Origin: Octopus vulgaris
Taxonomy: Eukaryota
Direction of reading: 5' to 3'
Assembly: GCA_951406725.2 (NCBI GenBank)
Contig: OX597823.1
Span: 80,538,001 to 80,602,000, forward strand
Length of the DNA: 64,000 bases
The notes below the pieces were generated by a model. The model searched no databases and was not told the origin of the DNA. It saw only the letters and a list, made by a program, of their open reading frames with translations. Positions 1-50,929 of the stretch are shown piece by piece; position 1 is the first letter of the stretch, and every line of letters begins with the position of its first letter. Position numbers and translations under genes: made by a program.

Positions 1-1586
1 AAATCTTTTTCAAAATTATTTCAGTTTTATTTTGCAGATATATAGGTGCTGTGTGTTGATGTGTATGTGTGCGCACCCACCAATTTCTTTTTTCTTTTAT
101 TTTTCACATCAAATTCCGATGTAATCGTAACCTACACCAAGACGAATTTATAGAAAATTTAATTTTTAAATAATCCAGAAAGTCGGTGTGGGGGGCAAAC
201 TTGTTAGGTGTGCCGTTTTGTTTTGGGGGTATTTTTTAGGATCACATTACTCACTGTCTCTTTACATTTCTTTAATTCAGAAAGTAGGGCGTGATTTAAA
301 AGATCCATTTAAGGTGTTATTTTAACTGCTATTTTTAGCCGGTTGAGCTATTACATAACGGATCCCTCTCGTTTTTGTTTTTTTAATATTTTAACGTTCA
401 ACATCCACGAAGTGAGCCTGTCCCAAAACTTTATAGGGATATTCTGTGTTCACTTCTATGACTAAGATAATGTTATTGAGAAAAAAGATCAGAATGAATG
501 TCACACAATCTTAATCTTCTATCTATGAATCTCATGCCTTGCTGCTAAGTTTAAAGAAAATTTATACAAAACCCACTCTATTTATAGCAACTTGTATTGT
601 ACATTTTACACGAGCCAACCATAGAGCCTCTACGCGGTCGTGCGACCTGTTAGAAATAGCAGCCAAATATCTCTTTTCTATTGTAACTCTAACATTCATA
701 TACCGTGGGTTCATAAAATAGTTTGTTTATTAAATATATATGTTCATTAATTTTGAGGATCTTTTCTTTTTGAAGGCCAGATTTCAACACAATTTCTAGT
801 TAACTAAACACTTTAAAACTTCGTATACTGGTAGAATGAGTCAAAAGAAAACAATTTGGATTCCTAATATTGTCACAAAATTTGTGGGAGCGTACGACTG
901 ATTAGATAAGTATTTAATTTATAAACCCCAGAGGAATATAATGTAAAATAGAGCCCAGGATTTAAAGTAACATATGAAAAAACATAGCATGGGGTATTTA
1001 ATTTGAGGTTCAACAATTTTTGTTACCTAACTACGTAATTAAATGTTACGGTCCTTCCAGCAATTATGCTAATTATGAACCAAAAAATAAAATTTATATT
1101 TTCGGCTTCTGCAATACTTATTTCAGTATCTCCTACAAGTGCAGTTAACATCACTTTCACTTCTCATTTTCACCCTTTTTTCATCTCTATCATACGCTTA
1201 TCTTTTTATTCTAATTTTAATTCCCCAATGTATTGTAATGTCCCCTCTATGTAAAACCTTTATGGTTAATAATATAATAAAAAATCAGTATCTCCTCTAA
1301 GTATGGTTTTCATATTCAACATTGAAAGTATTTGATTCTTGCTTTGTAGAGAGATATTTAATGAAATATGCGAAAAAATTAGGAAAATGTGAAGAACTGA
1401 GGTTTATAAAGTTTTATTGAGGGTGTCTTCACCGCTTCTCGCAGTTTAAGAGCTTCTTTTTTAAATGGTAATAAATTTTAGCCAACGCTTTTTGAGTTTA
1501 AAGGGTTAAAGCTGAATCAGTTTGTTATGGGTTATTGACTGTAAATCTGTCACTGCTTCTAGACGTAACGACCTTTTCAGACACAT

Positions 1587-4094: not shown

Positions 4095-5380
4095 CTTTCT
4101 TCTTGAGAGGACGGACGTGTCTAAAGCTGCGAAAGTTTATATATTTTTCGATATTTGTGTGGCCAAGCCAACTAACTTCTAGCGGAGCTAGTTGGCTCAG
4201 CAAAATTTAACCCTTAATGGGGTAAAATTTGCATTTTTGAACTTTGAAAACTGTTAAATGTATACACATTATTTCAGAAAACATGGCTATGAAGCGAACA
4301 GTCGGCTGAACGGTTCCAAACCGCCCATTTCGCACCTTAAAAGGCAACAAAGAATCGTCAAATGAACCTGCCAGCATGTGCAGCGTTCAGAATGAAAATG
4401 CAAAACAGGACATCACTTTTAACGTCATTGAGGATTTCCCTCCTCTTCCCTCCACCAATGCTCTGGTACCAGAGAGGGAGGAAGAGCAACCTATGAACAA
4501 CACAACCAACAAAGACACCACCACCAGCAACAACACTGAACAACATCATAACAATTTCGCCTCTGCTGCCAAGCAGGTCTCGGAAGAAATAAAAGTTACA
4601 ATGCAGGAAATCAAAACGGCCAAATGTTTATTGAAAAAACAAGGCAACCAAATTTACCTCAATACACCACAAGAACTCATAAAATAGACAAACAGAAAAA
4701 CAATAATTTACAAAATTTTCGAAAGAAAATACAGAAGAATAACTAACGCCACACCACAACAACTGGAAATAGCTCTGAAGCCCATTTGGGGTCAAAAGAG
4801 CTATGTGACCTAGGGGAAGCGGTTTGGAACTGTGGAGGTTTGTTTCCCAACGGAGGAGGATGCAAGGAGACATGCCTCTTCGCCCTTGCAAACCTAAAGT
4901 TTGGTGGCAGCTGTCCTCTATGACATAGAGGACACTGCCACTATTCTGGATGTACGCAGATTAAGGGAGAAGAACTGGTCTGGTATGGCACAGATCCAGC
5001 AAGAAAATATAAATTCAATTCCCGATTCCATAAATTTGCTGGACGGCACCAGATTGCACGTTGCTGTAGAGGGGCGAAGGCCAAAGTGCTACCTCTGCAG
5101 CAGCGAAAGCCATCTGAAAAAAAGACTGCCCCATTTACAAGCAAAGAATGAAGGCACAGAAAAAAAGAAACAGCAGCAGCAACAACAACAACAGCCGGAA
5201 ACACCAAAATTTGCCACAACACCATCACCACCACCACCACGAAGAGCAACACCACTTCCAGTCACCACCAAACCAACACCAAGAAGGACCAAGCAGAAGG
5301 AAGCACCAACACTGTCACCAACAACTACAGCAACAGCACCATTTCCCACAAACAATAATGATTTTTGACAAAGAATTAAT
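4095..5380 (+). mobile_element. Tx1-like element unit 1 (5' UTR + partial degenerate ORF1, no ORF2)
   Basis: Same 5' motifs as unit 2; ORF1 ATG 4283 with stops and deletions; RPKCYLCSSESHLK knuckle; ends aagaattaa(tta)n. Confidence 0.85.
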
Positions 5381-5629
5381 TATTATTATTATTATTATTA
5401 TTTCTTCCAACGCTGATGGACGTGTATCCGGAGGCTCTGTGATTTTTGCACCAATTTCATTGGAAATTTATTGATAAGTCTTAATATTTTTTAATATTTT
5501 TGTAGCCAAGCCGACTAGCTCTTTGCAGAGCTGGTTGGTTAGGCAAAATTTTGCCCCATTCGGGGTGAAATTACGTTTTGAAATTTTGAACATTTGAACA
5601 TTTAAACATTTTGAAAATTACAAAAAAAC

Positions 5630-7420
5630 ATGGCTATGAAGCGAACAGTTGGCTGTTCCTTCCTTCCAAATACATTCCCTCCGCAAACACACACAACTCG
5701 TCCAAAACACCCACTTCACGCCTTAAAAGGCAACAAAGATCCTCCTTCCGAACCGGAGAGCACGCGCTCCGTTCAAAAGGAGAATACAAGCCAGGACGTC
5801 GCGTTCGACATAATTCCCGATTTTCCCCCTCTGCCTTCACCCAATGCTTTGGTACAGAAGGAGGAAGAAGGAAAAACAATTACCAAAATTATTACAAACA
5901 TGAACACAGAGAAAAATGAAAAAACTTCCAACGATTTTGCTTCTGCTGCGAAGCAAATTTCGGATGAAGTTAAGATCACTTTAGAAGACATAAAAAAAGC
6001 GAAGGAATTATTGAGGAAGGATGGCAACAGCATCTTCCTCAATACTCCACAAGATGTAATTGACAACACCAACAGGAAAACAATTACATACAGAGTTTTC
6101 GATAGAAAACTGAAAAAAATGACAAACGCCACACCCCAACAGTTAGAGATAGCTCTAAAGCCCATTTGGGCCCAAAAGAGCTATGTAACCAAGGGGAAGC
6201 GTTTCGGAACCGTGGAGGTTCGCTTCCCAACAGAGGAGCAAGCAAGGGCAAACGCCATTTCGCCCTTGCAAACTGAGAGTTTGTTACTCGTCCCAACCCA
6301 CCTCGGGCGAAGAGTGACAAAAATAAAGATTGACCTTGCCCCCCCTGAACTAGATATGTCATGGCTGGTGGCAGCTGTCCTCTGTGATATAGAGGACACT
6401 ACCACCATTCTGGATGTCAGGAGAGTGAGGGAGAAAAACTGGTTGGGGATGGGAGTGCTGCTTCTTGCTCAAATTCAGCAAGAAAATATCAGCAAGGTCC
6501 CAGATTTTGTGAGTTAGCCGGACGGCACCAGGCTAAACGTTGCTGTAGAGTGGCGAAAGCCAAAATGTTTCCTCTGCAGCAGCGAAAGCCACTTAAAGAG
6601 GGACTGCCCCATTCAAAAAAAGAGAATGGAGGCTTACAGCAAGAGGCAGCAACAACAACAACAACAGAAACAACACGAAACACCAAAAGCTGCCACACCA
6701 CCAACACCATCACCAGCACCAAGACGAACAACACCACCTCCAACAACAACAACCACCAAACCAACACCGACACCAGTACCTCGAAGGTCGACAGCAGCAA
6801 CATCAACAGCAACAGGAGCAGCGGCACCACCGATACCGGCGGAACCAACAACCTTTCGTCCTGCTGCTGAAGCAGACCGCTCAACCATTCCTTTGCCGGA
6901 TGAAGAGTACTCGGATTGTGCGAGCTCTGATTCCAACAAAGGAGAATGGAGCACAGTGCCTCCAAAAAAGAAAAGGAGGAAAAAACAAAAAGATATACAG
7001 GGGAAGCACGAACAAATAGTGCTTCCAAACATCAACAACAACATCAACGACAACACACATTCACAACAACAAACAACAACACTTTCGACACCACTACTGC
7101 CATTGCCACTGCCACAGACACAAACCCACACAGACACAATTACAGCAATAAATACAAAAAACCAAGAACTGGTTGAGTATTTGAAAGACAAAACAAGCAC
7201 AAATATAACGGATTTCGTTATACCAACACAAAACACACCACCAGCACACATTCTCACAATAAAAATAAACAAAACAACATATAATGAAATCAAACAAAAT
7301 TTCCCTAACGATGTGGGATCGTTAGGGAAAAGTTTCTCTAAGAAACTATATAAAAATATTGTGGAAGAACCCATGCAAAAGCACAAGGGAGCCACCCCCA
7401 CCACCAACAACAGTAAGTAG
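5630..7420 (+). pseudogene. Tx1-like ORF1 (RRM-like region, CX2CX4HX4C knuckle, Q/P/T-rich linker, PPKKKRRKK basic patch)
   Basis: ORFs 5630-6517 and 6626-7420 are in the same frame, split by one TAG at 6515-6517 (other copies encode L in NLPDG); KCFLCSSESHLKRDC knuckle near 6565-6607. Confidence 0.88.
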
Positions 7421-7457
7421 AGCCTTTTTTCTCCTTTTTTTCCCTAACTTTTGAAAC

Positions 7458-10400
7458 ATGGCAAATCTTAGAATCGGTTGCTTGAATGTGAGAGGCCTCG
7501 GGTCACCTGTTAAACGACCTGAGGTTTCATGATGTGGATGTAGCAGCCATCAGTGAAACCAGGCTCTCCGACCCGCAGGAACTCGCAGCCCTTTTCGGCG
7601 GATACGAGATATTTCTATCTCCGTGTCGGCCGGGAGCGGGCGGTGGTAGTACTGCGGTGTTGTTTCGGAAGGGCCTGGACTTGAAAATAAGGACAGTCTT
7701 CTTGGATCCGGAAGGTAAGTTGGTGGTCCTTGACGTGGACGGTAGTGACGGCGGTGCTTTCAGACTGCTGGCTGCCTACGCTCCGACAGGAGCAGGGCAG
7801 TCGGATTATTTAAAACGTCTGGAAGTTTTCCTGGGAACGTCACACACTCTAGTGCTAGTTGGGGATTGGAATGCTGTCTTAGACGAAAGTTTCGATCGGG
7901 TGGGCAGGGGAGCGTCTGATAGGAGAGGGGGAGGGTGCAAGATCCTCGCCAACCTACTCGGCCGCTTTCAGCTGTCCGACAGGTTTCGACTAGACAACCT
8001 GAATGTGCCAATGTGGACTTGGACCAACCGCATCGGGTCGTCTAGATCGTACTTAGATAGAGTGTTTTGTAGGCCAGCGGATAAGGACAGCGTAGGGTGT
8101 CCACAATTCCACCTAGTCGAATATACGGACCACAAATTAGTGATCTGTACGGTCGACTTAGATAGGCTACATAGACAGGGACCCGGCTACTGGAAGCTGA
8201 ACGCGTCGTTAACGACGTGCAAAGCTTACAGAGACCGGATTAGTTTACTAGTTAAGCGGGTGCTCACGGGGGCAATCATCAACAACAACTGGTGGTTTGC
8301 CCTCAAGAGAGCAATTAGAGTAGAGTTGATTAGGTATAGTAAGACTCTAGCTATTGAACGTAAGAAGAGAGAGCGGGATTTAGTTAAGAAACTAGACGAG
8401 GCTCTTGACACTGGCATCGCGACCGACGTATTGGTGGCAAGGTTGGCCCTCGACCAACACTTCGACGCCAAACACGAAGGCTGCGTTGTCAGAGCTAAGG
8501 CACGTTCGCTAAGCGGGGAGGGGACTAGAGCCGCTTGATGGGCCCGCGTGGCGGAGGCGAAGCGAGGCAACAAAGCAACCATTCGGTCTTTGGTGGACTA
8601 GAACGGGCGCGAGGTTACCGAACCGAAGCAGATGTGTACGGTGTTTCAGCGGCGCTTTGCTCAACTGTTTGAGATGAGCGGTGGAACGGACAACGGTGCA
8701 GACTTCGGTGTGTACCTGGACAGCCTACCGCAACTCTCGGACAGCGAGGCAGAGTGCTGCAAAGGACCGATATCTGCCTGGGAAGTGGAGGAAGCGATGA
8801 AGAGTTGCACGAGAGGTAGATCGCCGGGTTTGGATGGTCTGCCCTACGAGCTTTACGTTTCAATGCCAGACTTGTTTGCGGGCCTGTTGGCAAACGTCTA
8901 CTGCAACTGGCAGCAAAACGGGAGAATTCCTGCTTTTGTCTGTCGAGGGGTGGTGGCTTTGCTGAAGAAGGACCCAAACAAGGGGGACGTTATAGGGAAT
9001 TTCCGGCCCATCACTCTGCTCAATGCAGAGTTGAAGATTTTGGCCAAGGTGCTAGCCAAGAGATTGGCGCTTGTCGTGGACAAGCTGGTCGGCGGGACGC
9101 AGACATGCGCCGTGCCGACCAGGTCGATACACGACAACCTCCATCTCATGCGCTACATCATAGAGAAGGTGGGTAACGACGCTGGCGCGGGTGGGGCTTT
9201 GATCAACTTAGATCAGAGTAAAGCCTTCGATAGGGTCGACCATCGGTACCTGGCAGCTGTTCTCAAGGCAGCCGGCTTCGGTCCAGTGTTCCGCGGGTGG
9301 ATAGCTGCTTTATACAGCAACAGCTGCTCGGTGATACGGGTGAATGGTCACCTTTCGGAACCGTTCAACATCTCGCATTCAGTCCGCCAAGGATGCCCTC
9401 TCTCCTCCCTCTGGTACATATTGTCTCTCGAGCCATTACTGCACAAGTTGGAGGCTTTGAGGGGTATCCCGCGCGATCTAGTAGACGGAAACAGCGTGTC
9501 TGCCTATGCTGACGACGTCACCGTGAGGGTGTCTAGCCACAGGCACATTGGCCTGATTGGCGAGACACTAAACGAGTATGAAGCGGTGACAGGGGCAAAG
9601 ATTAACGCGGAAAAGTCTGTGGGCTTGCAACTGGTCACCTGGAGAGGCAAACCCATGCCGTCCAACAGCGTCGTAGGGCGCTGGACAGACGGACCCATTA
9701 AACTGCTCGGGGTCTGGTTCAGTCCGGACCTCCAGGTGGATAAAAACTGGGAAGAGGTGACGAGCAGGGTGGCACGTCTCACCCAGAAATGGGCCGAGAG
9801 GAAGCTGTCCCTGAAAGGTCGAGCAGAGGTGGCGAATGCGTACATCGCATCCGTCATCTATTACCGCTTGACCGTCGTCCCTTGTCCCGACTGCTGGTTG
9901 GCCAAGCTGTTACGCCTGCTCTTCGACTTTTTGTGGAAGGGTCAGGTGCCACTGGTCAGGCGATCCATCTGCTGTCAATGACCGCTGAACGGAGGCCTTG
10001 GAATGCCGTGGTTGCTGATGCGCTCAGGCTGCGACATCTCAAGCGTTTCCTAGATGGTGAACAGGTGTGGTCGTCTTTTGTCAGACGCGATTTTCCGCAG
10101 CTAGTCTCTTTGACAGAGCTGCAGACCTGGATCAAACGTAGACTGAGAAAGGGCGCTTGACACCTCGAGTGCCGTCAAGCTCCTTCCACCAGGCGGGCAA
10201 TGCGATCGGTTACAGCTCCACTCTAGCGTTCTATAGAGGGTTAGTGGAGGAAAAATGCGACGACGTTCTTGGGGAAACTCTAGGCGTTGACTTTAACGAA
10301 CTGAGCGGTCTGTTCGGAAGGACTTTCGGGCCGGGGCCGATGGATAATTTCCAGAGGTCGCTCGCCTGGCAGTGGTACCGAGGGGCTCTGCCTGTTCGAG

Positions 10401-10855
10401 ATAAACTCTACCGGCACGGAAGTGCCGTTGGCCGGGCCTGCCCGAGGTGTTGCCAGGACGACGAAACCGTTCTGCACGCACTCGTCCAGTGCCCAAGTAT
10501 TGCTGAAATATGGGTTTATGTTGAACAACTACTGTCACATGTAGGACAGATCCGACTATCGGCCGAATCCATAGTGAAGATTGCCCCGCCGACCTCCTTT
10601 AACAAGGAGGGCGAGGCCGTTTTCTTGTGCCTAGTGGCTGTGGCGAAAGAGGTGGTGTGGTGGACTCGTTTGAAAGGGCTAAAGTCAGACACTTTCCTCT
10701 TTGGTCAAGGCCTCATCAACTTTTTCAAGTTTTGCTTGAAAAGGAAGATGAGGTTAGAGAGGAAAGTGCTGTCCGATAGCAAGTTTTATGAAAGGTGGGT
10801 AAATTGTGCGAGACTGGCCAGTATAAATGGACCAGTTCTCAGGTTTCGCCTGTGA
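7458..10855 (+). pseudogene. Tx1-like ORF2: AP endonuclease + reverse transcriptase + C-terminal zinc finger
   Basis: MANLRIGCLNVRGL start; SET, YAP, GDWN, YLDRVF and TDH APE motifs; SPGLDG, FRPITLLN, DQSKAFD, VRQGCPLS and YADD RT motifs; CPRC..ETVLHALVQC; frameshift ~7515, stops at 8536, ~8598 and 9979, further frameshifts ~10020-10190. Confidence 0.95.
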
Positions 10856-11143
10856 TTTCAAAAGGGTAATATAAAAGGAGAAAAAAGGGACTCTCTACAC
10901 CCCTTTTTTGACCAGGCTCCCGTTGGCTTTTATAGGGTTTTTTCCACCAGGAACCTTTCATAACGCCTCCCCCTTTTGGGAGTTTTTCATTGTTAATGTT
11001 TTAAATGTTATAAAGTTTTTACTCGGATTTTTCAAAAACGGACAAAACCCTTTGTAACCTTTCGTCCTGTTTTGTCGTTTTATGTAATCATGTATGTTAG
11101 CCCTTGTGGCCAATAAAAAGAATAAATTATTATTATTATTATT

Positions 11144-13393
11144 CTTTCTTTCCGACACGACGGACGTATGTGAAGCAGCTCTGTGAGTTTTGTGCCAATT
11201 TTATTGAAAATTTTTCTAAAAGTTGTAATATTTTTTGATATTTGTGTGGCAAAGCCGATTAACTTCTTGCGAAGCTAGTTGGCTAGGCAAAATTTTACCC
11301 CTTTGGGGGTAAAATCACTGTTTAAAATATTGACATTTACATTTTATTTCATTTGAACATTTCCAAAATGTCTTTAAAAAGAGCAGCTGGCTCTTCCCTT
11401 CTTTTAACACCACCCCCTCCACAAGAAGAAAAAATTTCGTTAGCGGTTCCGAACCGCCCATTTCGCGCCGTAAAAGGCAAAGAAAATATTGCAATGGAAC
11501 GTGCTGGAAAGCAAAACGTTCCAAATGAGAATAAAAGAGAAGACGTCACTTTCGACGTCATTTTAGATTTCCCTCCTCTGCCCTCAACCAATGCTATGGT
11601 ACCGAAGGGGGAGGAAGGGAAAGATATGAATAACAGAGAGACAAGTAAAGAAGAGAGAAGTGAAGAAGATTCCAAAGGTTTTACTTCAGCTGCGAAGCAG
11701 ATTTTGGACGAGGTAAAAGTTTGGGTAGAAGACATTAAAATGGCAAAGGAGTTGTTGAGAAAAGAGGGAAACAGTGTCTTCCTCAACACACCTCAACAAC
11801 TCATACATGACACTAACAAAAAAAACAATTTTTTATAAAGTTTTCGATAAGAAAAATAAAAGACTGGTTAACGCCACACCCCAACAATTAGAAATGGCTC
11901 TGAAGCCTATATGGAGCAAAAAGAGCTATGTGACCAGAGGGAAGCGTTTCGGAACCGTGGAGGTTCGCTTCCCAACAGAGGAGCAAGCAAGGGCACATGC
12001 CATTTCGCCCTTGCAAAATGAAAATTTGTTCCTCGTTCCAATGTACCTCGGGCGTAGGGTCCAGAAAATAAAAATTAACACAATACCACCCGAACTAAAC
12101 ATATCATGGCTAGTGGCGGCTATCCTCTATGACATAGAGGACACTGCCACTATTCTAAATGTTCGGAGGGTAAGAGAAAAGAACTGGTCAGGTATGGGTA
12201 TTGAACTGCTGGTACAAATCCAGCAGGAAAACATTAATGCCATACCTGACTCAGTCATTTTACTGGATGGAACCAGGCTAAATGTTACTGTAGAGGGGCG
12301 AAAGCCAAAATGTTATCTCTGCAGTAGCGAAAGCCACCTAAAGAGGGACTGCCCCATTCAAAAAAAAAGAATGGAAGCAAACGGCAAGAGGCAGTAACAG
12401 CAACAACAACAACAACAGCACGAAACACCAAAGGCTGCCACACCACCAACACCAGCACCAAGACGAACGACACCACCTCCACCAACACCAGCACCAAGAC
12501 GAACGACACCACCTCCAACAACAACCAGCAAACCAACACCAACCCCAGCACCAAGAAAAACAACTAAAAAACCAGTAGAAACACCAACATCGTCATCATC
12601 AACAACAGATACAGCAACACCACCGCTACCAAAAGAACCAACAGAAATCTTTCGTCCTGCTGCTGAAGCAGACCCATCAACAATTCCTTTGCCGGATCAC
12701 GATAGCTCAGATTGTGCGAGCACTGATACCGAAAAAGGAGAATGGCACACAATACCTCCAAAAAAGAAAAGGAGGAAAAAACAAAAGGACATACAGGGGA
12801 AGCACGAACAAATAGTGCTTCCCAACATCAACAACAACAACACACACTCACAACAACAAACAACAACAACACTTTCGACACCACTACTGCCACTACCACA
12901 CACACAAACACACACAGACACAATTACATCAATAAATACAAAGAACCAAAAACTAGTTGAGTACTTAAAAGACAAAACTAGTACAAGTATAACAGATTTC
13001 GTTATACCAACACAAAACACACCACCAGCACACATTCTCACAATAAAAGTAAGCAAAACAACATATAATGAAATCAAACAAAATTTCCCTAACAATGTGG
13101 GATCGCTAGGGAAAAGTTTCTCCAAGGTACTATAAAAGGAGAAAAGGGGCCCTCTACCCCCCTTTTTTGACTAGGCTCCCGTTGGCTTTTATGGGTTTCT
13201 TCCACCAGGAACCTTTCGTAACGCCTCCCCCTTTTGGGAGTTTTTCGTTGTTATATTATTTGATTGTTATACAGTTTTTACTCGATTATTTTTCACAAAC
13301 GGACAAAACCCTTTGTAACCTTTCGTCCTGTTTTGTCCCTTTATGTTTTTCTAATCATGTGTGTCAGCCCTTGTGGCCAATAAAAAGAATTAA
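11144..13393 (+). mobile_element. Tx1-like unit 3 (ORF1 + 3' UTR, ORF2 deleted)
   Basis: ORF1 remnant 11368-13135 (frameshifts); at ~13125 it joins the 3' UTR homologous to 10860-11125. Confidence 0.9.
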
Positions 13394-13420: not shown

Positions 13421-15912
13421 GCTTTTGAAGCGGACAGACGTACTTCCTGAAGCTGCGTAAGTTGTTGACCATTTCTGCCTGAAATTTTGTAAATATTTTT
13501 GGATATTTGTGTGGCCAAGCTGACTAACTTCTTGCAGAGCTAGTTGGTTAGGCGAATTTTACCCCTATTATGGGTAAAATTTTCGTTTGAACTTTTAAAT
13601 TTTTGCATACATTTCCATTTCATTTTACAAAAAATGTCGTTGAAGAGAGCAGTTAGCTGTTCCCTTCTTCAAACATCACGCCCTCCACACAAACAAGCAA
13701 TTTCGAAAACGGCTCCAAACCGCCCATTTCATGCCTTAAAAAGCAAACAAGAAAATTCATAAGAACGTGCCGGCACGTGCAACGTTCCAAATGAAAATGG
13801 TAACGAAGGCGTCACTTTTGAAGTCATCGAAGATTTCCCTGCTCTTCCCTCCACCATTGCTCCAGTACCAGAGAATGGGGGAAAGAAGACCAGCAACGGG
13901 GAAAGAAGACCAGCAACGGGGAAAGAAGACCAGCAACGACACCGACACCACCACCAGCAATGACACAAAAAGTGAAAGCCATCGTAACGGTTTCACCTCT
14001 GCTGCAAAACAGAGCTCGGAGGAAATAAACGTTACGATGGAAGAAATTAAAAGTGCAAAGAGTTTGTTGAGGAAAGAAAGAAACTGTTTTCCTCAACACA
14101 CCACAACAACTAATTAATGAAACAAGCAGAAAAACAATAATATACAGAGTCTTCGAAAGAAAATATAAAAAGTTGAGCAATGCCACACCACAACAACTAG
14201 AGATAGCTCTAAAGCCTGTATGGGGTCAAAAGAGCTATGTAACCAAGGGAAAGCGGTTTGGAGCCATGGAGGTTCAATTCCCAATGGAGGAAGCGGCAAG
14301 GAAGCATGCCATTTCGCCCTTGCAGACAGAAAATTTGTTGCTCGTACCAACATACCTTGGTTAGCGAGTGACAAAAATTAAAATTGACCAGGTGCCGCCC
14401 GAGCTAAGTATATCTTGGCTAGTGGAAGCTGTCCTCTATGACATAGAATACACTGCCATTATTCTAAAAGTGCACAGGTTGCGGGAGAGGAACTGGTCAG
14501 GTATGGGGGTGCAGCTGCTTGTACAAATTCAGCAAGAAAATATAAATGCCATACCTGATTCGGTAAATTTGCCGGACGGCACCAGAATACACGTTGCTGT
14601 AGAGGGGCGAAAACCAAAATGCTGCCTCTGCAGCAGCGAAAAACACCTAAAAAAGGATTGCCCCATTTATAAGCAAAGAATGGAGGCAGAAAAAAAGAAG
14701 CAACAACAACAGCATGTGACACCAAGGGTTTCTGCACCACCACCACGAAGAGCGACACCACCAAACTAACACCAAGAAAGAGCATGCAGAAAGAAACACC
14801 GGCATCGTCACCAACACCAACAATAATAACCGCCGTTTATAACAGAATTAACAGCATTTCGTCAAACTGTTGAAACAGACCCGACAAACGTCCCCTTTCC
14901 AGACCAAATCAGCTCGGATTGTGCGAGCACTGATAGTGAGACAGTGCCACCAAAAAAAAAAGAAAAGAAAAAACACAAAGAATCACATGACACACTGGGG
15001 AGGTGCAAACAAATAGAGCTTCCCAACATCAACAACACTTTCTCCACTACTGCTACACATCAATACACGCACAGACACCATTACAGCAATAAACACAAAA
15101 AATGAACAACTTGTTACATACCTGAAAGAAAACAGACACGAAAATTACAGATTTTATTATACCAACACACAACACACCACCAGCACACATTCTCACAATA
15201 AAAATTAATGAAAATAAATACATTATCAAAGAGAAATTCAGAAACGATGTTGGGTCGCTAGGGAGAAATTTCTCAAAAAAACTATACAAAAACCTGGTGG
15301 AAACACCCGTGCAAAAGCACAAGGGAGCCACCCCACCAAACAACAGTAAGTAGAACCTTTTTCTCCTTCTTAACCTTTTAAAACATAGCAAAACTCAGAA
15401 TTGGTAGCATAAATGTGAGAGGCCTCGGATAGCGAAAGAGGTGATATGGTGGACCCATTTGAAAGGGCTATAGTCAGACACTTTCCTCTTTGGCCAAGGC
15501 CTCATCAACTTTTTCAAGTTCCACTTGTAAAAGAAGGTGAGAGTAGAGAGGGAAATGTTGTCTCGTCACAAATTTATTGAAAGGTGGGTGAATGTCAGTA
15601 AAATGGCCAGTATGAACGGACCAATTCTGAGGTTACACCTGTAAAAAAAAAAGGTAAATATAAAAGGAGAAAGGGGCTCACTACTCCCATTTTGACCAGG
15701 CTCCCGTGGTTTTTATGGGTTTTTCCATGAGTAATCTTTCAAAGTGCCTCCTCCTATTGGGAGTTTTACTTAATTATATATTTTCGTTGTTATCTTGAAT
15801 TTTACACGGACCTTTCTATTGGACAAAACCCTTTGTAATTTTCGCCCTGTATTTGTCCTTACATGTTTTCTTTGATTTTTGTTAGCTCTTGTGGCCAATA
15901 AACAAGAATTAA
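13421..15912 (+). mobile_element. Tx1-like unit 4 (ORF1 + both ends of ORF2, ~3.1 kb internal deletion)
   Basis: ORF1 remnant 13634-15353; aatgtgagaggcctcgg (cf. 7485-7501) fused at ~15429 to gcgaaagagg (cf. ~10643). Confidence 0.9.
13878..13938 (+). repeat. 20-bp tandem repeat x3 inside unit 4 ORF1
   Basis: (gggaaagaagaccagcaacg)x3. Confidence 0.9.
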
Positions 15913-15936
15913 TTATTATTATTATTGTTGTTGTTG

Positions 15937-17990
15937 TTTTCAAAGCTGACAGACGTGTCTCCAAAAGCTCCGTAAGTTGTTGGCCAATTTCATAGGAAAA
16001 TTTGTTTCAAGTGTAAATATGTTTGTATATTTGTGTTGCCGAGCCAACTAGGTTCTTGTGGAGCTAGTCAGTTAGGTGGAATTTTGCCCTTTTAGGGGCG
16101 AAATTTTCAATTTAATATTTGTAAATTTTGTAAAAGTGTCTTTGAAGAGAGCAGTAAGCTGTTCCCTTCTTTGTGCACCACACCCGCTGCAGACGGGCAA
16201 CTTGACAAGTCAAACATCAAATGTTGATTCAAACTGCCCATTTCGCACCTTAAAAGGCAAAGAAAAGAATATAGAAGAGCATTCCACCATGTGCAGCACT
16301 ACTCAAGTAAATGAAGGCTGTTCCTTCAACTGCCTTTCTGACCTGCATTTCCCAGCTCTCACCACCACTATTGCTCCCACACCGGAGAAGGAAGTAGAGA
16401 AGAACATAAACAAGAAGAACAAAGAATCCAACACCAATGACACCAGCAAGACCAACAACAATCCATTGTAACAATTTTGCCTCCACAGCAAAGCAAAGCT
16501 TGGAAGAAATCAATGTTACAATGGACAACATTAAAACAGCAAAAGAGTTGTTAAGGAAAGAAGGTAACAATGTCTTCCTTAACACTCCACAGTCACTAAT
16601 ACAAGAAACAAACAAACGAACATTAATATAGAAAATTTTAAACTCCAAATACAAAAAATTGGAAAGTGCAGTTGGAGATAGCACTCAATCCCATATGGGG
16701 CAAAAAATCCTTTGTAACAAAAAGGAAGCGGCTTGGAACCGTAGAAGTTCGGTTCCCAACGGAAGAAAAAGCAAAGAAACATTCACCATCGACCTTGCAA
16801 ACTGAAAATTTGCTACTCGTGCCGACATACCTTGGTCTGCGTGTAACCAAAATCAGAATAGACCAAGTGCCGCCCGAGCTTATATACTGGCTAGTGGCAG
16901 CTGTCCTCTACAACATAGAAGACACTGCCACTATTTTGGAAGTGCATAAGTTGCACAGCCAGAACTGGTCAGGTATGGGAATGCAGCTTCTTGCACAAAT
17001 TGACCAAGAAACAATAAATTCCATACCCAACTCTATAAATTTGCCGGACGGCACAAGGCTGCATGTTGCTGTAGAGGGGCGAAAGCCAAAATGCTACCTC
17101 TGCAGCAGCAACAAACATTTGAAAGTCGACTGCCCCATTTACAAAGAAAGAATGGAGGCAGAGAAAAAGAAGTTACAGCAGCAACAACAACAACAGGTGA
17201 TGCAGCAGAAGCAAACACCAAAGGCTTCTGCACCACCAACACCATCACCACCACCACGAAAAGCAACGCCACCTCCAACCATCACCAGACCAACACCAAC
17301 ACCAAAGGCAATCACACCAAAAGGGACAATAATACCATCACAAACACCAACAATAGCAGCACCAGTTTCAACAGAAATTACGCCATTTTGAAAGACTTGA
17401 AACGGACCCCAAAGACATCCCCTTTCCCGACCAAATCAGCTCAGAAAGTGCGAGTACTGGTAGTGAGAAAAGGGAGAAACACCTGAAAACTGGGGATGCA
17501 TGAGAAAATAGAGCTTTGCAACATCATCAACAACAACAATAACATGCACTCACAACAATTAACCCCTTCTCCACCACTACCACCGCACACACCAATACAC
17601 ACAGACACCACCACCAATACAAATGTTACAGTAATTAACCCAAAAAAGGAACAACTAGTGACATATTTGAAAAACAATACAGACACAAACATTTCAAATT
17701 TTGTCATACCCACACAAAACACACCACCAGCACACATACTCTCACTGAAAATTTCACAAGACAACGATATCAAAATAAAAGACAAATTTCTGGACGATGT
17801 TTGATCCATGGTTGCAGCTCTGTAACCTTTCAAAGTGCCTCCCCCTATTGGGAATTCTTTGTAATTGTTATATTTTTCGCTGTTATTTGAATGTTTACAC
17901 AGACCTTTCTTTTTCGCAAAACCCTTTGTACTTTTTGTCCTTACATGTTTTTGATTTATATTAGCCCTTGTGGCCAATAAAACCAGAATT
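15937..17990 (+). mobile_element. Tx1-like unit 5 (ORF1 + distal 3' UTR)
   Basis: ORF1 remnant ~16136-17804 with KPKCYLCSSNKHLKVDC; joins the 3' UTR at ~17825; ends cccttgtggccaataaa. Confidence 0.88.
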
Positions 17991-23070: not shown

Positions 23071-23095
23071 TATCTAATATATATATATCTTTTAA

Positions 23096-25795: not shown

Positions 25796-26502
25796 ACCAG
25801 TTATGCACTGGGGTCAATACATTCAACTGCGTGGCACCTTCTGCAAGTGCCTTCTACTATAGCCTTGGGCTGACCAAAGTTTTGTGAGTGGATTTGGTAG
25901 ATAGAAACTGAAAGAAGACTGTCGTATATATTTGTGTTTGCCCCACTTCCCCACCGTCATGTTGACAACTGATGTTGGTGTGTTTATGTCCCCGTAACTT
26001 AGCAGTTCAGCAAAAGAGACTGATAGAATAAATACTAGGCTTATAAAGAATGACAAACAAGGAAAAGAATTTATTTATATATTTATCTCTCTCTATATAC
26101 ATATATATATATAAAATATAACATGGGACGAATGCAAAACATCCAGACAGACAATACAAAGAAACCAAGGACGGGTCATTTGAAGTTTTCTTTCCTCAGT
26201 CAAGTACCAGATTACCTTTGCGATTTTGGCTGATTATAATTGAGATTGCTCCAATCTGGCCAGCCCCAGTTAGGTGATACAAAAATGAGACAATATAACA
26301 CCCACACATGTATGTATGTATTTGGTATATTCACAAAGAAACATTTAACATTAGCAGTTTTTGCAGCTTTCATCAAATAAATTTATATTACAAATTACAA
26401 ATTCTAAACCAAATTTGATAGAATTTTTTCAAAAAAATTTTTTAAATGTAAAATTCACTAAAAAAATCTCTAATTTCTTATATTATTAAGTAATATTTTT
26501 AA

Positions 26503-26715
26503 GACAGTGAGCTGGCTGAATTGTTAGCATGTCAGACAAAATGCTTCGTAACACTTTTGACTTATGTTCTGAGTTCAAACTAAACTGAAGTTTGCTTTGC
26601 CTTTCTTTCTTTTGGGGTCAATAAAATAAGTAGCAGGTGAGTACTGGGGTTGATGTGATTGACTATCCCCTTCCCCAAAATTTCAGGTCTTGTGACTATA
26701 GTAGAAAGAATTATT
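26503..26715 (+). mobile_element. SINE family B
   Basis: A/B-box head gagctggc..gagttcaaa, ggggtcaataaaataagtag body, tail caggtcttgtgactatagtagaaag. Confidence 0.7.
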
Positions 26716-33160: not shown

Positions 33161-34034
33161 TGAGGTCTGATCAATAAGTATCCAGACTGTTGCCATAGTA
33201 ACAAAGCTACAGCACAGTGGGAAGCCACTTAGCACAGATTGACTATGGACTCGGCTGTGCATGCACACTGAGTTCCAACACTAGCTCACTTCTGCTGTTT
33301 ACAGCAGTGCTTGGAAGGAACATGCGAAGCGGGTGATTGTTACATTAATCATGACAGAGAAAGTTGTCATGGTGATAACTGCTCAGAGGCTTACGCAAAG
33401 TTGCAAAAAGTGTATGGAGAGGAGTGTATGAGCTGCACACAAGTGTACAAACGTTTCCAAGGTGGTAAAAAAAAATGCTGATAGTGATGAACATTCTAGG
33501 TGACCCACAACTAGCAGAACTGAGAAAGACATTGCAGATGTGCATGCAGCTGTGAGGGGAAATTGTCAAATCTCCATCTGTGAATCATCAGAAGATTTGC
33601 AGATTAGTTACAGTTCAGTTCAGTCCATTATCACTGAAGATTTGGGTATGAGATGTGTGTCTGCCAAGTTTATGCTTTCAGCTGATCAAAAAGACACTTG
33701 GTTTGCAGTTACACAAGATCTACTTGACTATGTCAAGAACGATGAAAACTTTTGGAAAACTTTGCGTAGGCCTCTGAGTAGGTATCGTCAAGCTTTTGGC
33801 CAAATTTGATGAAGATTCTCTGCTCAAATTTCTCTGTCATGGTCAATGTGACAATCTCACATTACACACGTTCCTTCCAAGCACTGCTGTAAACAGTGGA
33901 AGTGAGCTAGAATGATAAAACTTGGTGTGCATACACAGCAGAGTTCAAGGTCAATCTGTGCCAAGCAGCTTTACTCTGTGTACTTTAGTTTTGTTACTAT
34001 GGCAACAGTCCGGATACTTATTGATCAGGCCACA
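33161..34034 (+). mobile_element. Non-autonomous mariner with long inverted arms
   Basis: TA|TGAGGTCTGATCAATAAGTATCC ... GGATACTTATTGATCAGGCCACA|TA; internal transposase N-terminal remnant (EDLGMRCVSAKF); inserted in a CR1 3' fragment. Confidence 0.85.
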
Positions 34035-35804
34035 TATGTCAATATGTAAAAATTAAAAAAAAGGTAAAGTTACTTTCTCAAGTCATACCGACTAATAAGG
34101 GCTGGGTTCTTGGCTTCATGGCATATAAATTCCTCACACAGGATGGATCACAGGTCCATCACAGGATTACTTATTTTTGCCAGCTGAGTGGACTGGAACA
34201 ACATGAAATGAAGTGTTTTGCTCAAGAACACAATGTGTCACCTAGTCCAGGAATCAAAACCATAATCTTACAATCATGAGTCCAAGCCCCCTAACCACTA
34301 AGCCATGCACCTCCACATAGTTCAATGTCAATATGTTCCACTTTGTAGTTTGCTTGCAACCTCTACCTCTAACAAAATGGCTTCAACAAGCATACAAGTT
34401 TACCTTCCCTTATCAAATCTATTTTTGCTTTTATACAGCTTAAGGTTATCTCAGCTTGCACAATTTCATTGCCAGTGAGTTCTCCATTGGTCACTAAACA
34501 TTGAAATAAGCAATTTTCAATAGGAGTCTCTTTCCTCCATCCATCCATTTTCTCCACTCACTATTCCTGAGAAGATCATCAGGTAGAGTCCACAGGCACT
34601 TCCTTCATAGGGTCCTATCAGAAACAACCATCATTGCACTCTCTGGCTGGATTCCCAGGTGTGAACAACTGAGGCTGTGGATATTATCCAACCATCCCTT
34701 TCTTAGCTTACCCTCTGAATCTCCTGCTGGTTGGCTTGATTTGAAGAATTTATTTTTCCTGTGGTTCTTCCCTGTGACATTATTACCACATGTCCATAGC
34801 ACTAGAGCTGAAACCTCTCGATGTGAAAATGCAGTAGCTCAGTTTGGAGAGACTTCCTGATCTTTGAGCTACTTACCCTGTTGAGTAATGTCACTCCCAA
34901 GATTCTTCAGAGGAACTCGATTTCAGCTGCTGATTCACAGTAATACTCTTTCAGTCGTTATCCAACATTCATGACTAAGTGAAGACAGGCATGGAAACAA
35001 AATTGAAGAGAGTGAATTTGGCTTTTTGTTATTGTATTCAAATCTCGAAATTGTTTCCAACACAAAGTATGCTTTCCATTTAATAAACTACTCCTTTAAA
35101 TTATTTCTGATTTCAATATATACTGACTACTATATAAAGCAGCAAGCTGGCAGAATTGTTAGCATGATGGGCAAAATGCTGAGTGGCATTTTGTCTGTCT
35201 TAATGTTTTGAGTTCAAACTCCACCAAGGTCGACTTTGCTTTTCATTCTTTAGGGGTCAATAAAGTGAGTACCAAATTGCCGTCCTTGTGCCAAAAATTG
35301 AAATCAATAGATACTGACAACATAATTTGGTTCTTAATATCATCTTTGGCTTCAACAAACAGCTCTATTAACTTATCTATCACTCTCAAACGTATTCTCT
35401 TTATCGCACGGTCTAGGCTTCTTCTCATATATTATGTAACATATAATGTTGCTGGTGTGATGTAAAAAAAAGCACCCGTACTAGTACATATAAAGCATGT
35501 GTTAGCGCCACGTAAAAGTACCCACTGCATTATGTAAAGTGGTTGACGTTAGGCAGGGCATCCAACTGTAGAAACTATGCCAAAACAGATTGGACCTGGT
35601 GTAGCCCTCCGGCTTGCTAGTTCCCGTCAATCTGTCCAAACCCTGCCAGCATGGAAAACGATCGTTAAAAAACAATTGGCAATGGATTATATTTCAACAC
35701 ATTATCATCCTTTACATGAAACTTTGTAAGACAACGTAGTAACGTGTCGTTGCTGGTGTAGTCTAACCCTTGTCGAGCAGACCTATATGATCAAAAACAT
35801 TCTT

Positions 35805-36024
35805 ATTTCTTTATTGCCCACAAGGGGATAAACATAGAGGGGACAAACAAGGCGATTAAGTTGATTATATCGACCCCAGTACGTAACTGGTACTTAATTT
35901 ATCGACCCCGAAGGGATGAAAGGCAAAGCCGACCTCGGCGGAATTTGAACTCAGAACGTAGCGGCAGACGAAATACCGCCAAGCATTTCGCCTGGCGTGC
36001 TAACGTTTCTGACTGCTTGCCGCC
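35805..36024 (-). mobile_element. Young full-length SINE family B with Tx1-like tail and 17-bp TSD
   Basis: TGATCAAAAACATTCTT at 35788-35804 and 36025-36041; CpG-rich body; B box GAGTTCAAATTCC. Confidence 0.9.
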
Positions 36025-36799
36025 TGATCAAAAACATTCTTGCTGGACGATCACGTTTGATGTTCTATTTATTTATTATTTTGTTGTTTTGCAGCTATAG
36101 TGTAGAATGCAAGATCTTACCACACAGTGTTACAGTTCGTTTTTACGGAAATAGGATACGACATAAGGAAGATTTAGCGTTTTAGCAGTTAGGCGACCAC
36201 AGATAATTCTTCGTTCATTTGTAATAATTAAGTAATATTTCCATAGGTTATCGCTGAATTTCACGATTTTTCTCCCCAACAATTTGATATAAACTTTACA
36301 ATTTGGAAAAATAAAGTTATCTCCCATGCCCAAGTAGCCTCCCTTACATTACTTGCCTAGCCTCAAGCACTTAATGAAATGAGCTAAGTTCTTCTTCCTT
36401 TCTTTCTAACTGTATTTGCCAAAATAATAAATGCCGTGAAATGGTAGTGTCGGACTGTATACTGTATCATTTGGTCGTGTTTTTCCGTGTTTATTATCTG
36501 GGTTCAGCTTTCGCAAGGTTTTATTATGCTTTGGATACACTAAGTACTATCTATATGCTGAGATAAAATTGGATCATCTTACACTCTTTCACGACTTTTT
36601 CGTTTCAGAGTCAAGAAAAGACAGTAAAAAAAAAAAAAAAAGATAACAAGGGAGTGAATACTATGGATGGAACACCTTATAGTATTCATCTAATCTCTCA
36701 AAGTAACGAATTGAAACCAACTTTGCCTTGTATCTTTCCCGGTTGATATACCTTGAACCGTTAATATATTTGAATGTTAGACAACCGATAGTGTTCTTC

Positions 36800-37000
36800 C
36801 AAAGTAATGATCATGTGATGTAGATGGATGTAGACAGCTCCATAAAGAAGTACCGATCATTCAACCTGGATGGAACTCGTGGAAGAGGGAGACCCAGAAA
36901 GACATGGTACTGAAGGACGATCTTAGAACACTGAACTTTATGGATGAGATGACAAAGGACCGAGATATTTGGCGCCTTGCTGCGCTAAAGAGGACCCTAC
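36800..37000 (+). mobile_element. RTE-like LINE 3' ORF remnant
   Basis: HVM*MDVDSSIKKYRSFNLDGTRGRGRPRKTW. Confidence 0.7.
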
Positions 37001-37046
37001 TTTCACAGCAAAAATGTTAATGTTGCTCTTCCTGCTGAAGGGGATT

Positions 37047-37451
37047 GGAATCTTTTCGGTTTGAACGGCAGTTTTTTCTAGCTGTGTCATATGAAATTGT
37101 CACCCATAATTATGACCCTAGTATCGATCTATTGCATTTCAATCTGTTTTAGGGTTAGGGTTAGGGGTGGGGGAAGGGTATCTTATTTTCTTCACAAATG
37201 TAAATAAACCCAATCTGTTTCTTAAACGAGGGACATATTCATACAGCACAGAATGCTTTTTAACTCAATAGACGTCAGTCATTGGTTGAAATTCCAGAAA
37301 TTGAAGAAAATATCTTACAAAATATAGAATTTTCTCAATAAAGCTAAGAGAAAAGATGTTTTATAAACACATTCTACCAGTATACGAAGTTTAAAAGTGT
37401 TTCGTTACCTTGAAATTATGTTAAAAACTGCCGTTCAAACCGAAAAAATCC
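37047..37451. mobile_element. TIR element (MITE) containing TTAGGG repeats
   Basis: TIRs ttttcggtttgaacggcagttttt / aaaaactgccgttcaaaccgaaaa; flanks ggggatt / gaggatt; related fragments at ~760-860 and ~18405-18590. Confidence 0.8.
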
Positions 37452-38540
37452 GAGGATTGGCATGTAAGAGCCCTGTGCCGGGGCCACATAAAAAGCATCT
37501 GTGCCGGCACCATATAAAGTGCACCCATGACACCACGTAAAAAGCACTTCCCTTCTCTTCCCTTTAGTCTTCCTTTTCCAAAAAACCACTTCTCTTCCCC
37601 TCTCTTCGTTATGTATTTATACTTATTGCCTTTCTTCGCTCCCCCACTTGCTTGTACCATTCTTTCGGAGTTTTGCTTTGTTATAACCAGAAATTACTCT
37701 AACGAAAGTAGCATTAATTTTGTTAGTCGTTCAATTTTTCTCAATCAGTCAATAGACCTTTTCTTTTAGCTTCCGTCTACCATCCACAAGGCTTTAGTTA
37801 GCCCGAGACTAGAATAGAAAGATACTTGCCCAAGGTGCCACGCAGTGGGACTGAACGCAAAACCACGTGTTTGGGAAGTAAACTTCGTACTACACAACCG
37901 TACCTGCGCCTGTGTCTTACCACAGTATGTTACCTTTTTGTAAATTATATTCTTTAGCAGTTTTATAAGTAATTACCGTTAAATAAATAAATTAGTGTGC
38001 AGGTATGAGTGTGTGATTAAGAAGCTCGTGGTTCCATGTTCACTCCAACTGCCACAGCACAGCACCTTTGCGAGTGGATCTGGTAGGAAGAAACTGTGGA
38101 AGCTCGTTTTCAGCTGGTGGAACTGTTAATCCTGGCGCCTCTCTCTCTTTTTCTCTCCTCTCTCACTATCTCTTATCTATCTCTCTTTCTCTCCTCTCTC
38201 TCTTTCTCTCCCCCCCTCTCTCTCTCTCCCTTTTTTCCTCTTATCTCTTTCTGTAGAAGAGCGTAGGCTTGAAACGTCAAAGACTTTTTCATTTTTCTTG
38301 AGCGTCAAACTTATATATTTTACATACATACATATATATTTTTTCTTCTTCTTGGTAGTCTATCGATCTCTGATGAAGACGTAATCTGTGGTCTCGGCAG
38401 TCAGCATTGGGAACGCATGTGGATCTGCAACCTAAAGCCGGAAGCACACAGGCGCCCGTGGGCCGGACACTGGTAGTCTGTGATCAGGACTGAAGATGCG
38501 AGGCATTGCCGTCTATCCTCCTCAAAGGCAGCTACAGCAG

Positions 38541-38900
38541 TGGAGGTGCAATGGCCCAGTGGTTAGGGCAGCGGACTCGCGGTCGGAGGATCGCGGTTTC
38601 GATTCCCAGACCGGGCGTTGTGTGTGTTGTTTATTGAGCGAAAACACCTAAAGCTCCACGAGTCTACGACAGGGGGTGGTGGCGACCCCTGTTGTAATCT
38701 TTCGCTCCAACTTTCTCTCACTCTTTCTTCCTGTTTCTTGTCCCCGACTTCCTACGCAACCGCTGAGCCTGGATGCGCATTCATCCACCCATCGATGCTT
38801 TCGGTGTCGGGGATTGACCTGCTTTCTCTTCTGCGGGTCTTATGAATAGCAAAGGACCACGTTTGGGACTTCTCCCACTACAGGGACGAAGACCGCTTAT
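38541..38900 (+). mobile_element. tRNA-SINE family D
   Basis: TGGCCCAGTGG A box, GGTTTCGATTCCC B box; near-identical copy at 59143-59475. Confidence 0.85.
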
Positions 38901-39169
38901 TTTTTTAAAAGTCTACTACTTATTCTATCTGTCTCTTTTTGCCGAACTCTAAGTTACAAGGACTTATTCTTTGTAAGCCTAGTACTTATTCTATTGTCTC
39001 TTTTTGCCGAACCGCTAAGTTACGAGGATGTAAACGCATCAAAATTGGTCGTCAAGCGATGGTGGGGGGACAAACACAAACACACATTTACATGACGGTC
39101 TTTCAGTTTCCCTCTACCAAATCCACTCACAGGGAAAAATTCAATTTAGAAATATTAAATCAAATTTCG

Positions 39170-39243
<74 letters not shown>

Positions 39244-39527
39244 AGTTGACGGGCTTCTTCCAGTTTCCACCTACCAAATTCACTCACAAGGCTTTGGTCG
39301 GTACGAAAGTATAGTGGAAGACACTTGCCCAAGGTCCCCTTACCGCTTGGCAACCAGCGTTGGCTTGTTTCCGTCGCCATAACTTAATGGTTCGATAAAA
39401 GTAATTGATAGAGTAAGTACGAGACTTATAAACAAATGCAGGGATCGATTTGTTCGACTAAAACCCTTTAAGGTGGTGCTCTGGTATGGTCGAAATTCAA
39501 TGACTGAAAAAGAAAAAAAGATTATCA

Positions 39528-41967: not shown

Positions 41968-42140
41968 TAGGCATAGGTATGGCTGTGTAGTAAGAAGCTT
42001 GCTTCCCAACCACATGGTTCTGGGTTCAATCCCACTGCATGACACCTTGGGCAAGCGTCTTCTACTATAGCCTCAGACTGACCAAAGCCTTGTGAGGTGA
42101 GTGGATTTGCTAGATGGATTCTGAAAGAAGCCCATCGAAT

Positions 42141-50265: not shown

Positions 50266-50929
50266 GTGAGATATTTGCTGTTTATAACTTTTTTCCTGTT
50301 ATTATTAAGTGTTAATTATTTATTTACTGTTTATAATTTCTCAAGTAAATCAACTGAATAATTAATCAAAATTAATTGCTGGTAAGGACACCATATTTCA
50401 TTATGCAACCAAAATATACTATCAAGTATATTGGTTTCAAATTTTAGCACAAGGCCAGCAATTTCAAAGGAAGGGGCTAGTTGATTACATTGACCCCAGT
50501 ACTCAGCTGCTACTTATTTTATCAACTTGAAAAGGATGAAAGGCAAAATTGACCTCGGAATTTGAACTTAGAATGTAAAGATGAATGAAATGCCACTAAG
50601 AATTTTACCTGGTGTGCTAACAATTCTGTCAGCCCACTGCCTTATATACTACCCTTGGTAGAATTATATGTCTTGCTGAGAACATAATGCTGTGACTGTC
50701 TGTGGACTTGGTTTTGTATTATAGCACCAGTGAGCAGTTACACTTGTGTTGCTTTAACCCTTCCAATTCCAGCCCAGCTGAAACCACCTCTGGGTCTATA
50801 GTACAAATGTCTTGTTTTTATAAGTTCTGAATTAAAATCTTCTACTAAACCTTAGTCCCAATTTATGTTCCTAAAGCTAGCTTAATGATAACTAAGTTAT
50901 TTTACTAAATTTTTTGTTATATTTTAAAT

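Follow-up and report, generated by a model that had tools for sequence, protein, structure and literature searches.

We describe a short interspersed element (SINE) of Octopus vulgaris whose final 51 nt are similar to the ends of four L1/Tx1-type long interspersed element (LINE) units, and we consider it fairly likely, judging from the sequence, that this SINE is in a stringent-type partnership with a Tx1-group LINE that putatively mobilises it in trans. Both elements lie in a 64,000-nt stretch of contig OX597823.1 (assembly GCA_951406725.2, positions 80,538,001 to 80,602,000), referred to here as the window; the counts of copies and the comparisons of tails cover the copies inside it. The tail match is real but modest, and the mobiliser is probably a relative of the broken LINE array found in the window. 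The parts of the SINE, including its RNA polymerase III (Pol III) promoter boxes and target-site duplication (TSD), are as follows.

35805..36024, minus strand: SINE copy, 220 nt, with a Pol III-type head, a family body and a Tx1-like tail (tail C)
36025..36041: TSD copy on the SINE 5' side, 17 bp
35788..35804: TSD copy on the SINE 3' side, containing the first T5 run
36003..36014, minus strand: A-box position, degenerate in the tail-C copy, with at most one mismatch in seven of eight sibling heads
35941..35950, minus strand: B box, an exact match to the pattern
35827..35855, minus strand: tail block 1, pyrimidine-rich, identical at 22/29 positions to LINE 13323-13351 (ungapped)
35810..35827, minus strand: tail block 2, a CCC/GGG stem and CUUGU loop (35817-35827) followed by AATAAA

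The shared tail and the LINE units

The LINE units form an array at 4095-18360 on the plus strand, where six diverged units lie head to tail at a single locus with an (ATT)n tract at every junction. Five of them are given below with their open reading frames (ORFs), endonuclease (EN) and reverse transcriptase (RT) domains and 3' untranslated regions (UTRs); the sixth, U5, is a partial unit.

4095..5378, plus strand: U0, partial ORF1, no tail hairpin, ending in AAGAAT before (ATT)n
5403..11125, plus strand: U1, full-length, broken L1/Tx1-type unit; hairpin at 11100-11110
5630-7420, plus strand: ORF1 of U1, with one internal stop
about 7458-10855, plus strand: ORF2 of U1 (EN, RT, zf-RVT), with at least four stops and two frameshifts
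11144..13392, plus strand: U2, the unit with the best tail match; its ORF1 runs straight into the 3' UTR; hairpin at 13367-13377
13421..15911, plus strand: U3, with an internal deletion of ORF2 near 15428; hairpin at 15885-15895 with a U-G pair
15927..17987, plus strand: U4, ORF1 and a short 3' UTR; hairpin at 17964-17974

A first-pass annotation of the window, made from the sequence, had aligned the SINE 3' end with the end of U2. This match is real, but it is split by a 16-nt gap that the earlier alignment had passed over with an ellipsis and that represents LINE sequence which the SINE lacks. The two blocks on either side of the gap are collinear, lie at the 3' termini of both elements and have the same orientation. 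Within block 2, the 17-mer at 35810-35826 is identical to LINE 13368-13384 at 16 of 17 positions without gaps and, when up to two mismatches were allowed on both strands, it was found in the window only in the SINE and at the LINE ends at 11101, 13368, 15886 and 17965. An nhmmer profile of the four LINE ends returned the SINE as its top match outside the training sequences (E 6e-4, with the next at 1.4), and a position weight matrix (PWM) of the terminal 18 nt scored the SINE at 23.4 bits, with 13.0 bits for the next best of 127,964 positions. Gap-tolerant alignment to the four units was equalled or bettered by 11, 0, 3 and 13 of 5000 tail shuffles, and the ten best non-self tiles among 1140 drawn from the window were the four LINE ends and a 144-nt fragment that we call element X. 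The LINE-like stretch begins where the similarity to sibling SINE bodies stops, as expected of tail replacement, and the SINE body itself is not similar to the LINE units, its alignments being equalled by 59-163 of 200 shuffles.

The possibility, raised in the same annotation, that another LINE family fits the tail better found no support in the window, where the only other recognised LINE ends are CR1-like. These ends (24.0 and 40.8 kb) matched neither tail C nor tail A, the commonest tail among the sibling SINEs (1104-3347 of 4000 shuffles as good). They belong to two LINE 3' fragments, at 24009-24368 (minus strand) and 40291-40794 (plus strand), which are 93% similar, end in (ATT)n and have no Pfam match; we presume them to be CR1-like from a C-terminal motif.

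Tx1-type is the best provisional label for the array LINE. ORF2 carries PF03372, PF00078 and PF13966 in that order, corresponding to an N-terminal apurinic/apyrimidinic-type (APE) endonuclease, an RT and a C-terminal zinc finger. In pairwise phmmer comparisons the RT reached 239 bits with a fish protein named TX1, whereas human L1 ORF2p gave 134 and R2 gave 81. A gag-type CCHC knuckle in ORF1 is a feature of the Tx1 clade; PF00098 was detected in the ORF1 of U2 only, with 16.9 bits (E 0.007) where the cut-off is 20.8, and a C-x2-C-x4-H-x4-C pattern is visible in the ORF1 of U1. Target preference, frequently for a microsatellite, with tandem arraying is another Tx1 feature and is seen at this one locus, and searches of the ESM Atlas with the RT and ORF1 gave no clade information. 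The units diverge from one another by 20-33% in the ORF1 core and by 28-41% in the 5' UTRs, and the array reads as the product of repeated targeted insertion and not of recent tandem duplication. U3 is without most of its ORF2, and U2 and U4 retain only ORF1 and the 3' UTR. Most array units lack ORF2 yet have ORF1 and both UTRs, in which they resemble the non-autonomous half-L1 (HAL1) elements that have been described (PMC5786205). Older, decayed L1/Tx1-type ORF2 fragments with no recognisable tails lie at 18607-19720 and 29228-29712 (plus strand).

The predicted hairpin, element X and the target site

The block shared by the two elements is predicted to form a 3-4 bp stem closing the 5-nt CUUGU loop. 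When the ends are aligned, the stems read GCC/GGC in the LINE, CCC/GGG in the SINE and ACC/GGU in element X, so that the third stem pair is G-C, C-G and A-U, respectively. The sibling tails, A and B, share the hairpin register and the loop, with majority stems of UGGC/GCCA and GGC/GCC, and in both the second stem pair is G-C, this pair being C-G in the LINE, tail C and element X. As plain sequence, neither tail A nor tail B matches tail C significantly. The lone mismatch in the 17-mer is compensated in the SINE by the base immediately 5' of it; a single compensated mismatch is weak evidence, given that a pairing partner is expected by chance about one time in five. Across 17 anchored tails (the tail at 61742 was excluded as unalignable), 53 of 68 cells pair (77.9%), compared with 24-49% in slid registers, and none of 500 shuffles reached this value. 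Twelve cells are changed on both sides, a number that again none of 500 shuffles reached. A permutation by lineage (LINE, tail C, element X and tail A, with tail B omitted) gave p = 0.021 with three pairs and p = 0.007 with four. There are 165 CTTGT pentamers in the window, of which five are closed by three Watson-Crick pairs, and all five are retroposon 3' ends; if G-U pairs are allowed, 15 are closed and seven of these are retroposon ends. The four LINE units differ from one another at 0-1 of the 19 nt of the terminal block, compared with 10-34% in the remaining 3' UTR and 20-33% in the ORF1 core, which suggests that the block is still in use. When the whole SINE or a 29-nt window was folded, the terminal hairpin was recovered, displaced in register and with a lower stem of 5 bp.

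Element X provides a further end with this arrangement.

1141..1284, plus strand: element X, a 144-nt pyrimidine-rich, 3'-end-like fragment flanked by 16/18 direct repeats (1123-1140 and 1285-1302)
1255-1267, plus strand: 4-bp stem of element X, with a decayed loop

Its last 45 nt match the SINE tail nearly gap-free, with the SINE's own spacing, and it shares 14 identical bases with block 1, a result reached by none of 5000 shuffles for a fragment that had been chosen after the tile scan. Direct repeats of this quality occur at a background rate of about 2% (67/3000; 84/4744). Membership of the array family was rejected for element X, since 748-1467 of 2000 shuffles of its upstream part matched the four 3' UTRs as well, and it is not the better match overall, with a single-sequence profile E value of 1.2 compared with 0.051 for U2 and 0.45 for U1. 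We read it as a truncated 3' terminus from a second family that has the SINE's spacing; there is no ORF in it, and its clade is taken from the tail alone.

The perfect 17-bp TSD reported in the first-pass annotation is confirmed, 35788-35804 being identical to 36025-36041 at 17/17 positions and beginning AAGAAT in the SINE orientation. That this start is like the LINE terminus also held, AAGAAT following the tail in three of the four tailed units and ending the tailless U0 (four of five unit ends), and the same six nucleotides continue the SINE's short terminal repeat. As had been stated, the SINE was inserted at a non-(TTA)n site, and beyond the first 6 nt the target is unlike the (ATT)n junctions of the LINE. 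One tail-A copy, a 5'-truncated SINE at 3241-3385 (plus strand), does lie within an (ATT)n tract and is oriented like the Tx1-type units. The annotation had gone on to propose that this Tx1 lineage or a relative mobilises a major SINE subfamily. For a major subfamily the window offers no sign, tail C being absent from all 14 other matches to the SINE family. The shared tail supports a partner of L1/Tx1 type, and the array's own lineage appears a less likely donor than a relative because the array is broken, element X matches the tail with the SINE's spacing and the insertion site is not (ATT)n. Thirteen recently active L1-Tx1 families are reported for O. vulgaris (PMC13282606).

Proposed mobilisation, alternatives and known systems

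In the arrangement that we favour, a Pol III-type SINE would have gained the 3' end of a Tx1-group LINE and would owe its copying in trans to that group's ORF2 protein. The head would drive transcription into the flank, stopping at a T run, and the RNA is predicted to end in a short stem closing the CUUGU loop, followed by AAUAAA and an A-rich end. The Tx1 ORF2 protein may bind this stem-loop in the way it would its own terminus, recognising the loop while accepting swaps in the stem, by analogy with zebrafish L2. Its APE endonuclease would cut between a pyrimidine and a purine, the nicked strand may base-pair with the RNA end, ...AAUAAGAAU, and the 17-bp TSD would be left by target-primed reverse transcription. 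Such pairing between RNA and target at priming is plausible given that AAGAAT is the LINE terminus and also continues the SINE's terminal repeat. The active donor would be a relative of the array with a shorter spacer and looser targeting, of which element X may be a truncated copy.

Several results weigh against a stringent-type partnership. When AATAAA and the sequence downstream of it were removed, the shuffles that did as well rose to 825, 4, 879 and 867 of 4000 for the four units, the nhmmer E value became 7.1, and only U2 (4/4000) and element X (20/4000) stayed notable. Using blastn with the Martelossi 2024 settings, a criterion taken from work on bivalve SINE/LINE pairs (PMC11481361), we obtained an E value of 0.010 in a library of 15 kb, equivalent to 0.62 at the scale of 1 Mb. 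At the level of plain sequence, neither tail A nor tail B is significantly similar to the LINE tail (655, 504 and 192 of 4000). Tail C occurs in a single copy in the 64 kb and in none of the 14 other matches to the SINE family, there is no intact ORF2 in the window, and the SINE target, which is not (ATT)n, has just its first 6 nt in common with the LINE junctions. Regarding the hairpin, the pair-count and type-count measures were not significant (273 and 59 of 500 shuffles), the covariation cells count copies and not events under a shuffle that ignores relatedness, and the covariation comes from about four lineages in a register picked by eye. No tail had a folding energy better than its own shuffles (z -0.96 to +0.84), the isolated SINE tail favours a different fold, with the stem only 3-4 bp long, and the heptamer CCTTGTG is also present, without a closing stem, in a CORE-type SINE family (7 of 19 sites).

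The alternative that survives best, which we nevertheless think unlikely, is that a Tx1 ancestor left the tail behind as a relic, or that the tail is a motif recognised by several LINE groups, and that the SINE is moved by CR1, RTE, L2 or Dong-R4, or by a relaxed mechanism acting on its A-rich end. A nick site of the pyrimidine/purine kind and a TSD of 17 bp are compatible with an L1-group endonuclease; the CR1-like tails in the window do not match and the near-invariant LINE terminal block suggests continued use. In favour of another mobiliser are the target, which is not the array's (ATT)n, the broken state of all LINE copies in the window and the presence of the heptamer in the CORE-type SINE. 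CR1, RTE and Dong-R4 are also described as active in O. vulgaris (PMC13282606), and partner swapping has been reported in mollusc SINEs (PMC11481361). A one-off chimera, in which an RT copied a Tx1 3' end and switched template to the SINE RNA so that no tail-C subfamily exists, seems to us improbable. The lone tail-C copy would be expected from such an event, and template switching onto small RNAs has been described for Tx1 and L1 (PMC4494074), but the SINE head is complete and starts where the siblings start, the tail is just 51 nt long and differs from every LINE unit in the window by an 11-16 nt gap and a compensated pair, and older siblings have the same hairpin register. Convergence or chance, for which one could cite two pyrimidine-rich ends with a polyadenylation-type hexamer, the sharp drop in significance without AATAAA, the E value of 0.62 at 1-Mb scale and the ease with which a 3-bp Watson-Crick stem with a 5-nt loop is found (2.0% of positions, 2526/127,950), seems equally improbable given two collinear blocks at the exact 3' end in the right orientation, a PWM score 10 bits above the next, a U2 result of 4/4000 even without the hexamer and a loop sequence common to three SINE tail types.

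Returning to the stringent-type partnership, a broader version of it can be put forward tentatively. It is possible that octopod Tx1-group LINEs are of the stringent type and read a CUUGU pentaloop, and that an octopus SINE family among the most abundant, probably tRNA-Deu, has been driven throughout its history by one Tx1 lineage after another, its tails changing between A, B and C while the loop was kept and the stem compensated. If the partnership is real, it would offer an animal example of stringent recognition on the branch adjoining vertebrate L1 and open the question to tests with a 20-nt element. It would also identify a driver of octopus SINEs and describe a SINE that uses a target-biased LINE without retaining its target. 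The broader version, if true, would amount to an L1-group SINE/LINE system in animals whose recognition depends on structure, and would link a large share of the octopus SINE expansion to Tx1.

L1-group LINEs are textbook examples of the 'relaxed' type. Ohshima has proposed that the L1 ancestor was stringent, with examples from plants and algae only, and called for tests in other lineages (PMC3472496). Among the known pairs are ZmSINE2/ZmSINE3 with LINE1-1_ZM (maize, sorghum) and SINEX-3_CR with L1-1_CR (Chlamydomonas), and Ohshima's survey counts three L1-tailed SINEs among 58 pairs, all plant or algal, with no Tx1 partner named in its table (PMC3472496, PMC3747384). The octopus case is like these in that about 50 nt of 3' end are common to a putatively tRNA-type SINE and an L1-group LINE, the predicted hairpin seems to show compensatory stem changes around a constant loop, and the LINE terminus is much better conserved than the remainder of the element; it is unlike them in that the partner is an animal, Tx1-type LINE, arrayed in microsatellites and with a CUUGU loop. 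In crocodilians, Kojima linked SINEU to Tx1-Mar through target preference and age, found no LINE sharing the 3' end of SINEU-1, and described the SINEU heads as U1/U2-derived and the tails as poly(A) (PMC4494074). Here too a SINE is proposed to be mobilised by Tx1-clade elements, but the octopus SINE shares the LINE tail and not the target. A 3' stem-loop near the terminus, recognised stringently, is also known from UnaSINE/UnaL2 and from ZfL2-1/ZfL2-2, and mutagenesis of the latter revealed recognition that is loop-specific and stem-swappable (PMC4176376), in keeping with the constant loop and covarying stem of the octopus tails; those elements are of the L2 clade and experimentally shown, whereas the octopus elements are of the L1/Tx1 group, with a shorter stem, and known from sequence only.

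Amongst molluscs, the bivalve HCD SINEs likewise combine one head and body with interchangeable LINE-derived tails, but their reported partners are CR1, CR1-Zenon, L2 and Nimb, and 'Tx1' appears 0 times in the main text (PMC11481361). For octopus, the SINE classes tRNA-Core and tRNA-Deu have been described, with no LINE partner named in the passages of those papers that treat them (PMC8967140, PMC13282606). SINEs make up 11.6% of the O. vulgaris genome, for which 80 L1-Tx1 families are listed (PMC13282606). We found no tail-sharing SINE/Tx1 pair and no Tx1 3' stem-loop in the mainly open-access literature searched (Repbase, Dfam, SINEBase or the Zenodo library may hold one). Octopus tRNA-SINEs named OK, OR1 and OR2 were reportedly described by Ohshima and Okada in 1994.

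The SINE family and the surrounding DNA

The SINE is a short, non-coding, TSD-bounded element, its 220 nt falling within the 80-500 nt expected of SINEs, and its family is interspersed and multicopy, with 14 other head/body matches in the window at E<=1e-3. Amongst the siblings, tail A occurs at eight places and tail B at two.

50424..50642, minus strand: sibling SINE, tail A example, majority stem UGGC/GCCA closing CUUGU
near 3380, 35312, 46533, 48905, 49817, 56302 and 61040: further tail-A ends
26502..26712, plus strand: sibling SINE, tail B example, same hairpin register, TSD 19/22
49000-49215, minus strand: second tail-B sibling SINE

At 48905-49215 (minus strand) the 3' part of a tail-A copy comes immediately after a tail-B SINE, the two forming a tandem or nested pair. 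The T5 run at 35788-35804 is a possible Pol III terminator. ARAGORN found no tRNA gene, and Rfam gave four matches up to E 10 with no tRNA family among them; SINE heads are often missed by tRNA scans. We infer a tRNA origin from the A and B boxes only, which were located with patterns that we take to be the usual ones. The head (35935-36024, minus strand) folds as one long hairpin, with a z score of -4.58 against 200 shuffles, and shows no cloverleaf. The heptamer CCTTGGG, the conserved core of CORE-SINEs (PMC5786205), is missing from the tail-C SINE and is found in the window's other SINE family. That CORE-type family is abundant and carries the CCTTGTG heptamer in its 3' part, at 22860-23075 (minus strand) and at six or more further sites, among them 27994, 37790, 39290, 39643, 42089 and 44448. 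Given that the tail-C SINE is without the CORE heptamer, tRNA-Deu is the better guess for its class; of the two principal SINE classes of octopus, it likely represents one. An 11-nt motif of the SINE body was not found in the searched supplements of two mollusc SINE papers.

The first-pass annotation had called the SINE young. The perfect TSD supports this, at 17/17 compared with 15/17, 19/22 and 15/17 in three siblings, but the other signs do not: the A box is mutated, and the CpG richness is common to the flanks (observed/expected ratios of 0.80 and 0.95). Retention of 15 CpGs in the SINE was ruled out as an age signal, the entire 35-42 kb block being CpG-rich. Divergence of the tail-C SINE from the sibling majority at non-CpG positions is ordinary (13.0%, compared with 10.1-18.8% in the siblings) and is no guide to the age of the copy, as it includes differences between subfamilies.

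The window DNA is animal and contains many microsatellites and SINEs. The RT of the window's retrotransposon has its nearest named relatives in Argonauta hians (68% identity) and Acanthosepion pharaonis (49%). The CpG-rich block, at 35001-42000, has observed/expected ratios of 0.67-0.86 amid CpG-poor regions (mostly 0.1-0.5), and is probably an unmethylated promoter or intergenic DNA separating two gene bodies. The SINE sits at the edge of this block, near exon-like frames at 34372-34838 (minus strand). Exon-bearing frames at 52822-53169 and 61274-61636 (plus strand) match MutS_II and MutS_III (E 1.7e-4 and 1.9e-7), and presumably belong to an MSH4-type gene. Remnants of mariner-type transposases lie at 47660-48319 (plus strand), 25566-25853 (minus strand) and 33504-33809 (plus strand), the first two with matches to Transposase_1 (E 6e-19) and HTH_48 (E 1e-7) and the third assigned by repeat similarity only.

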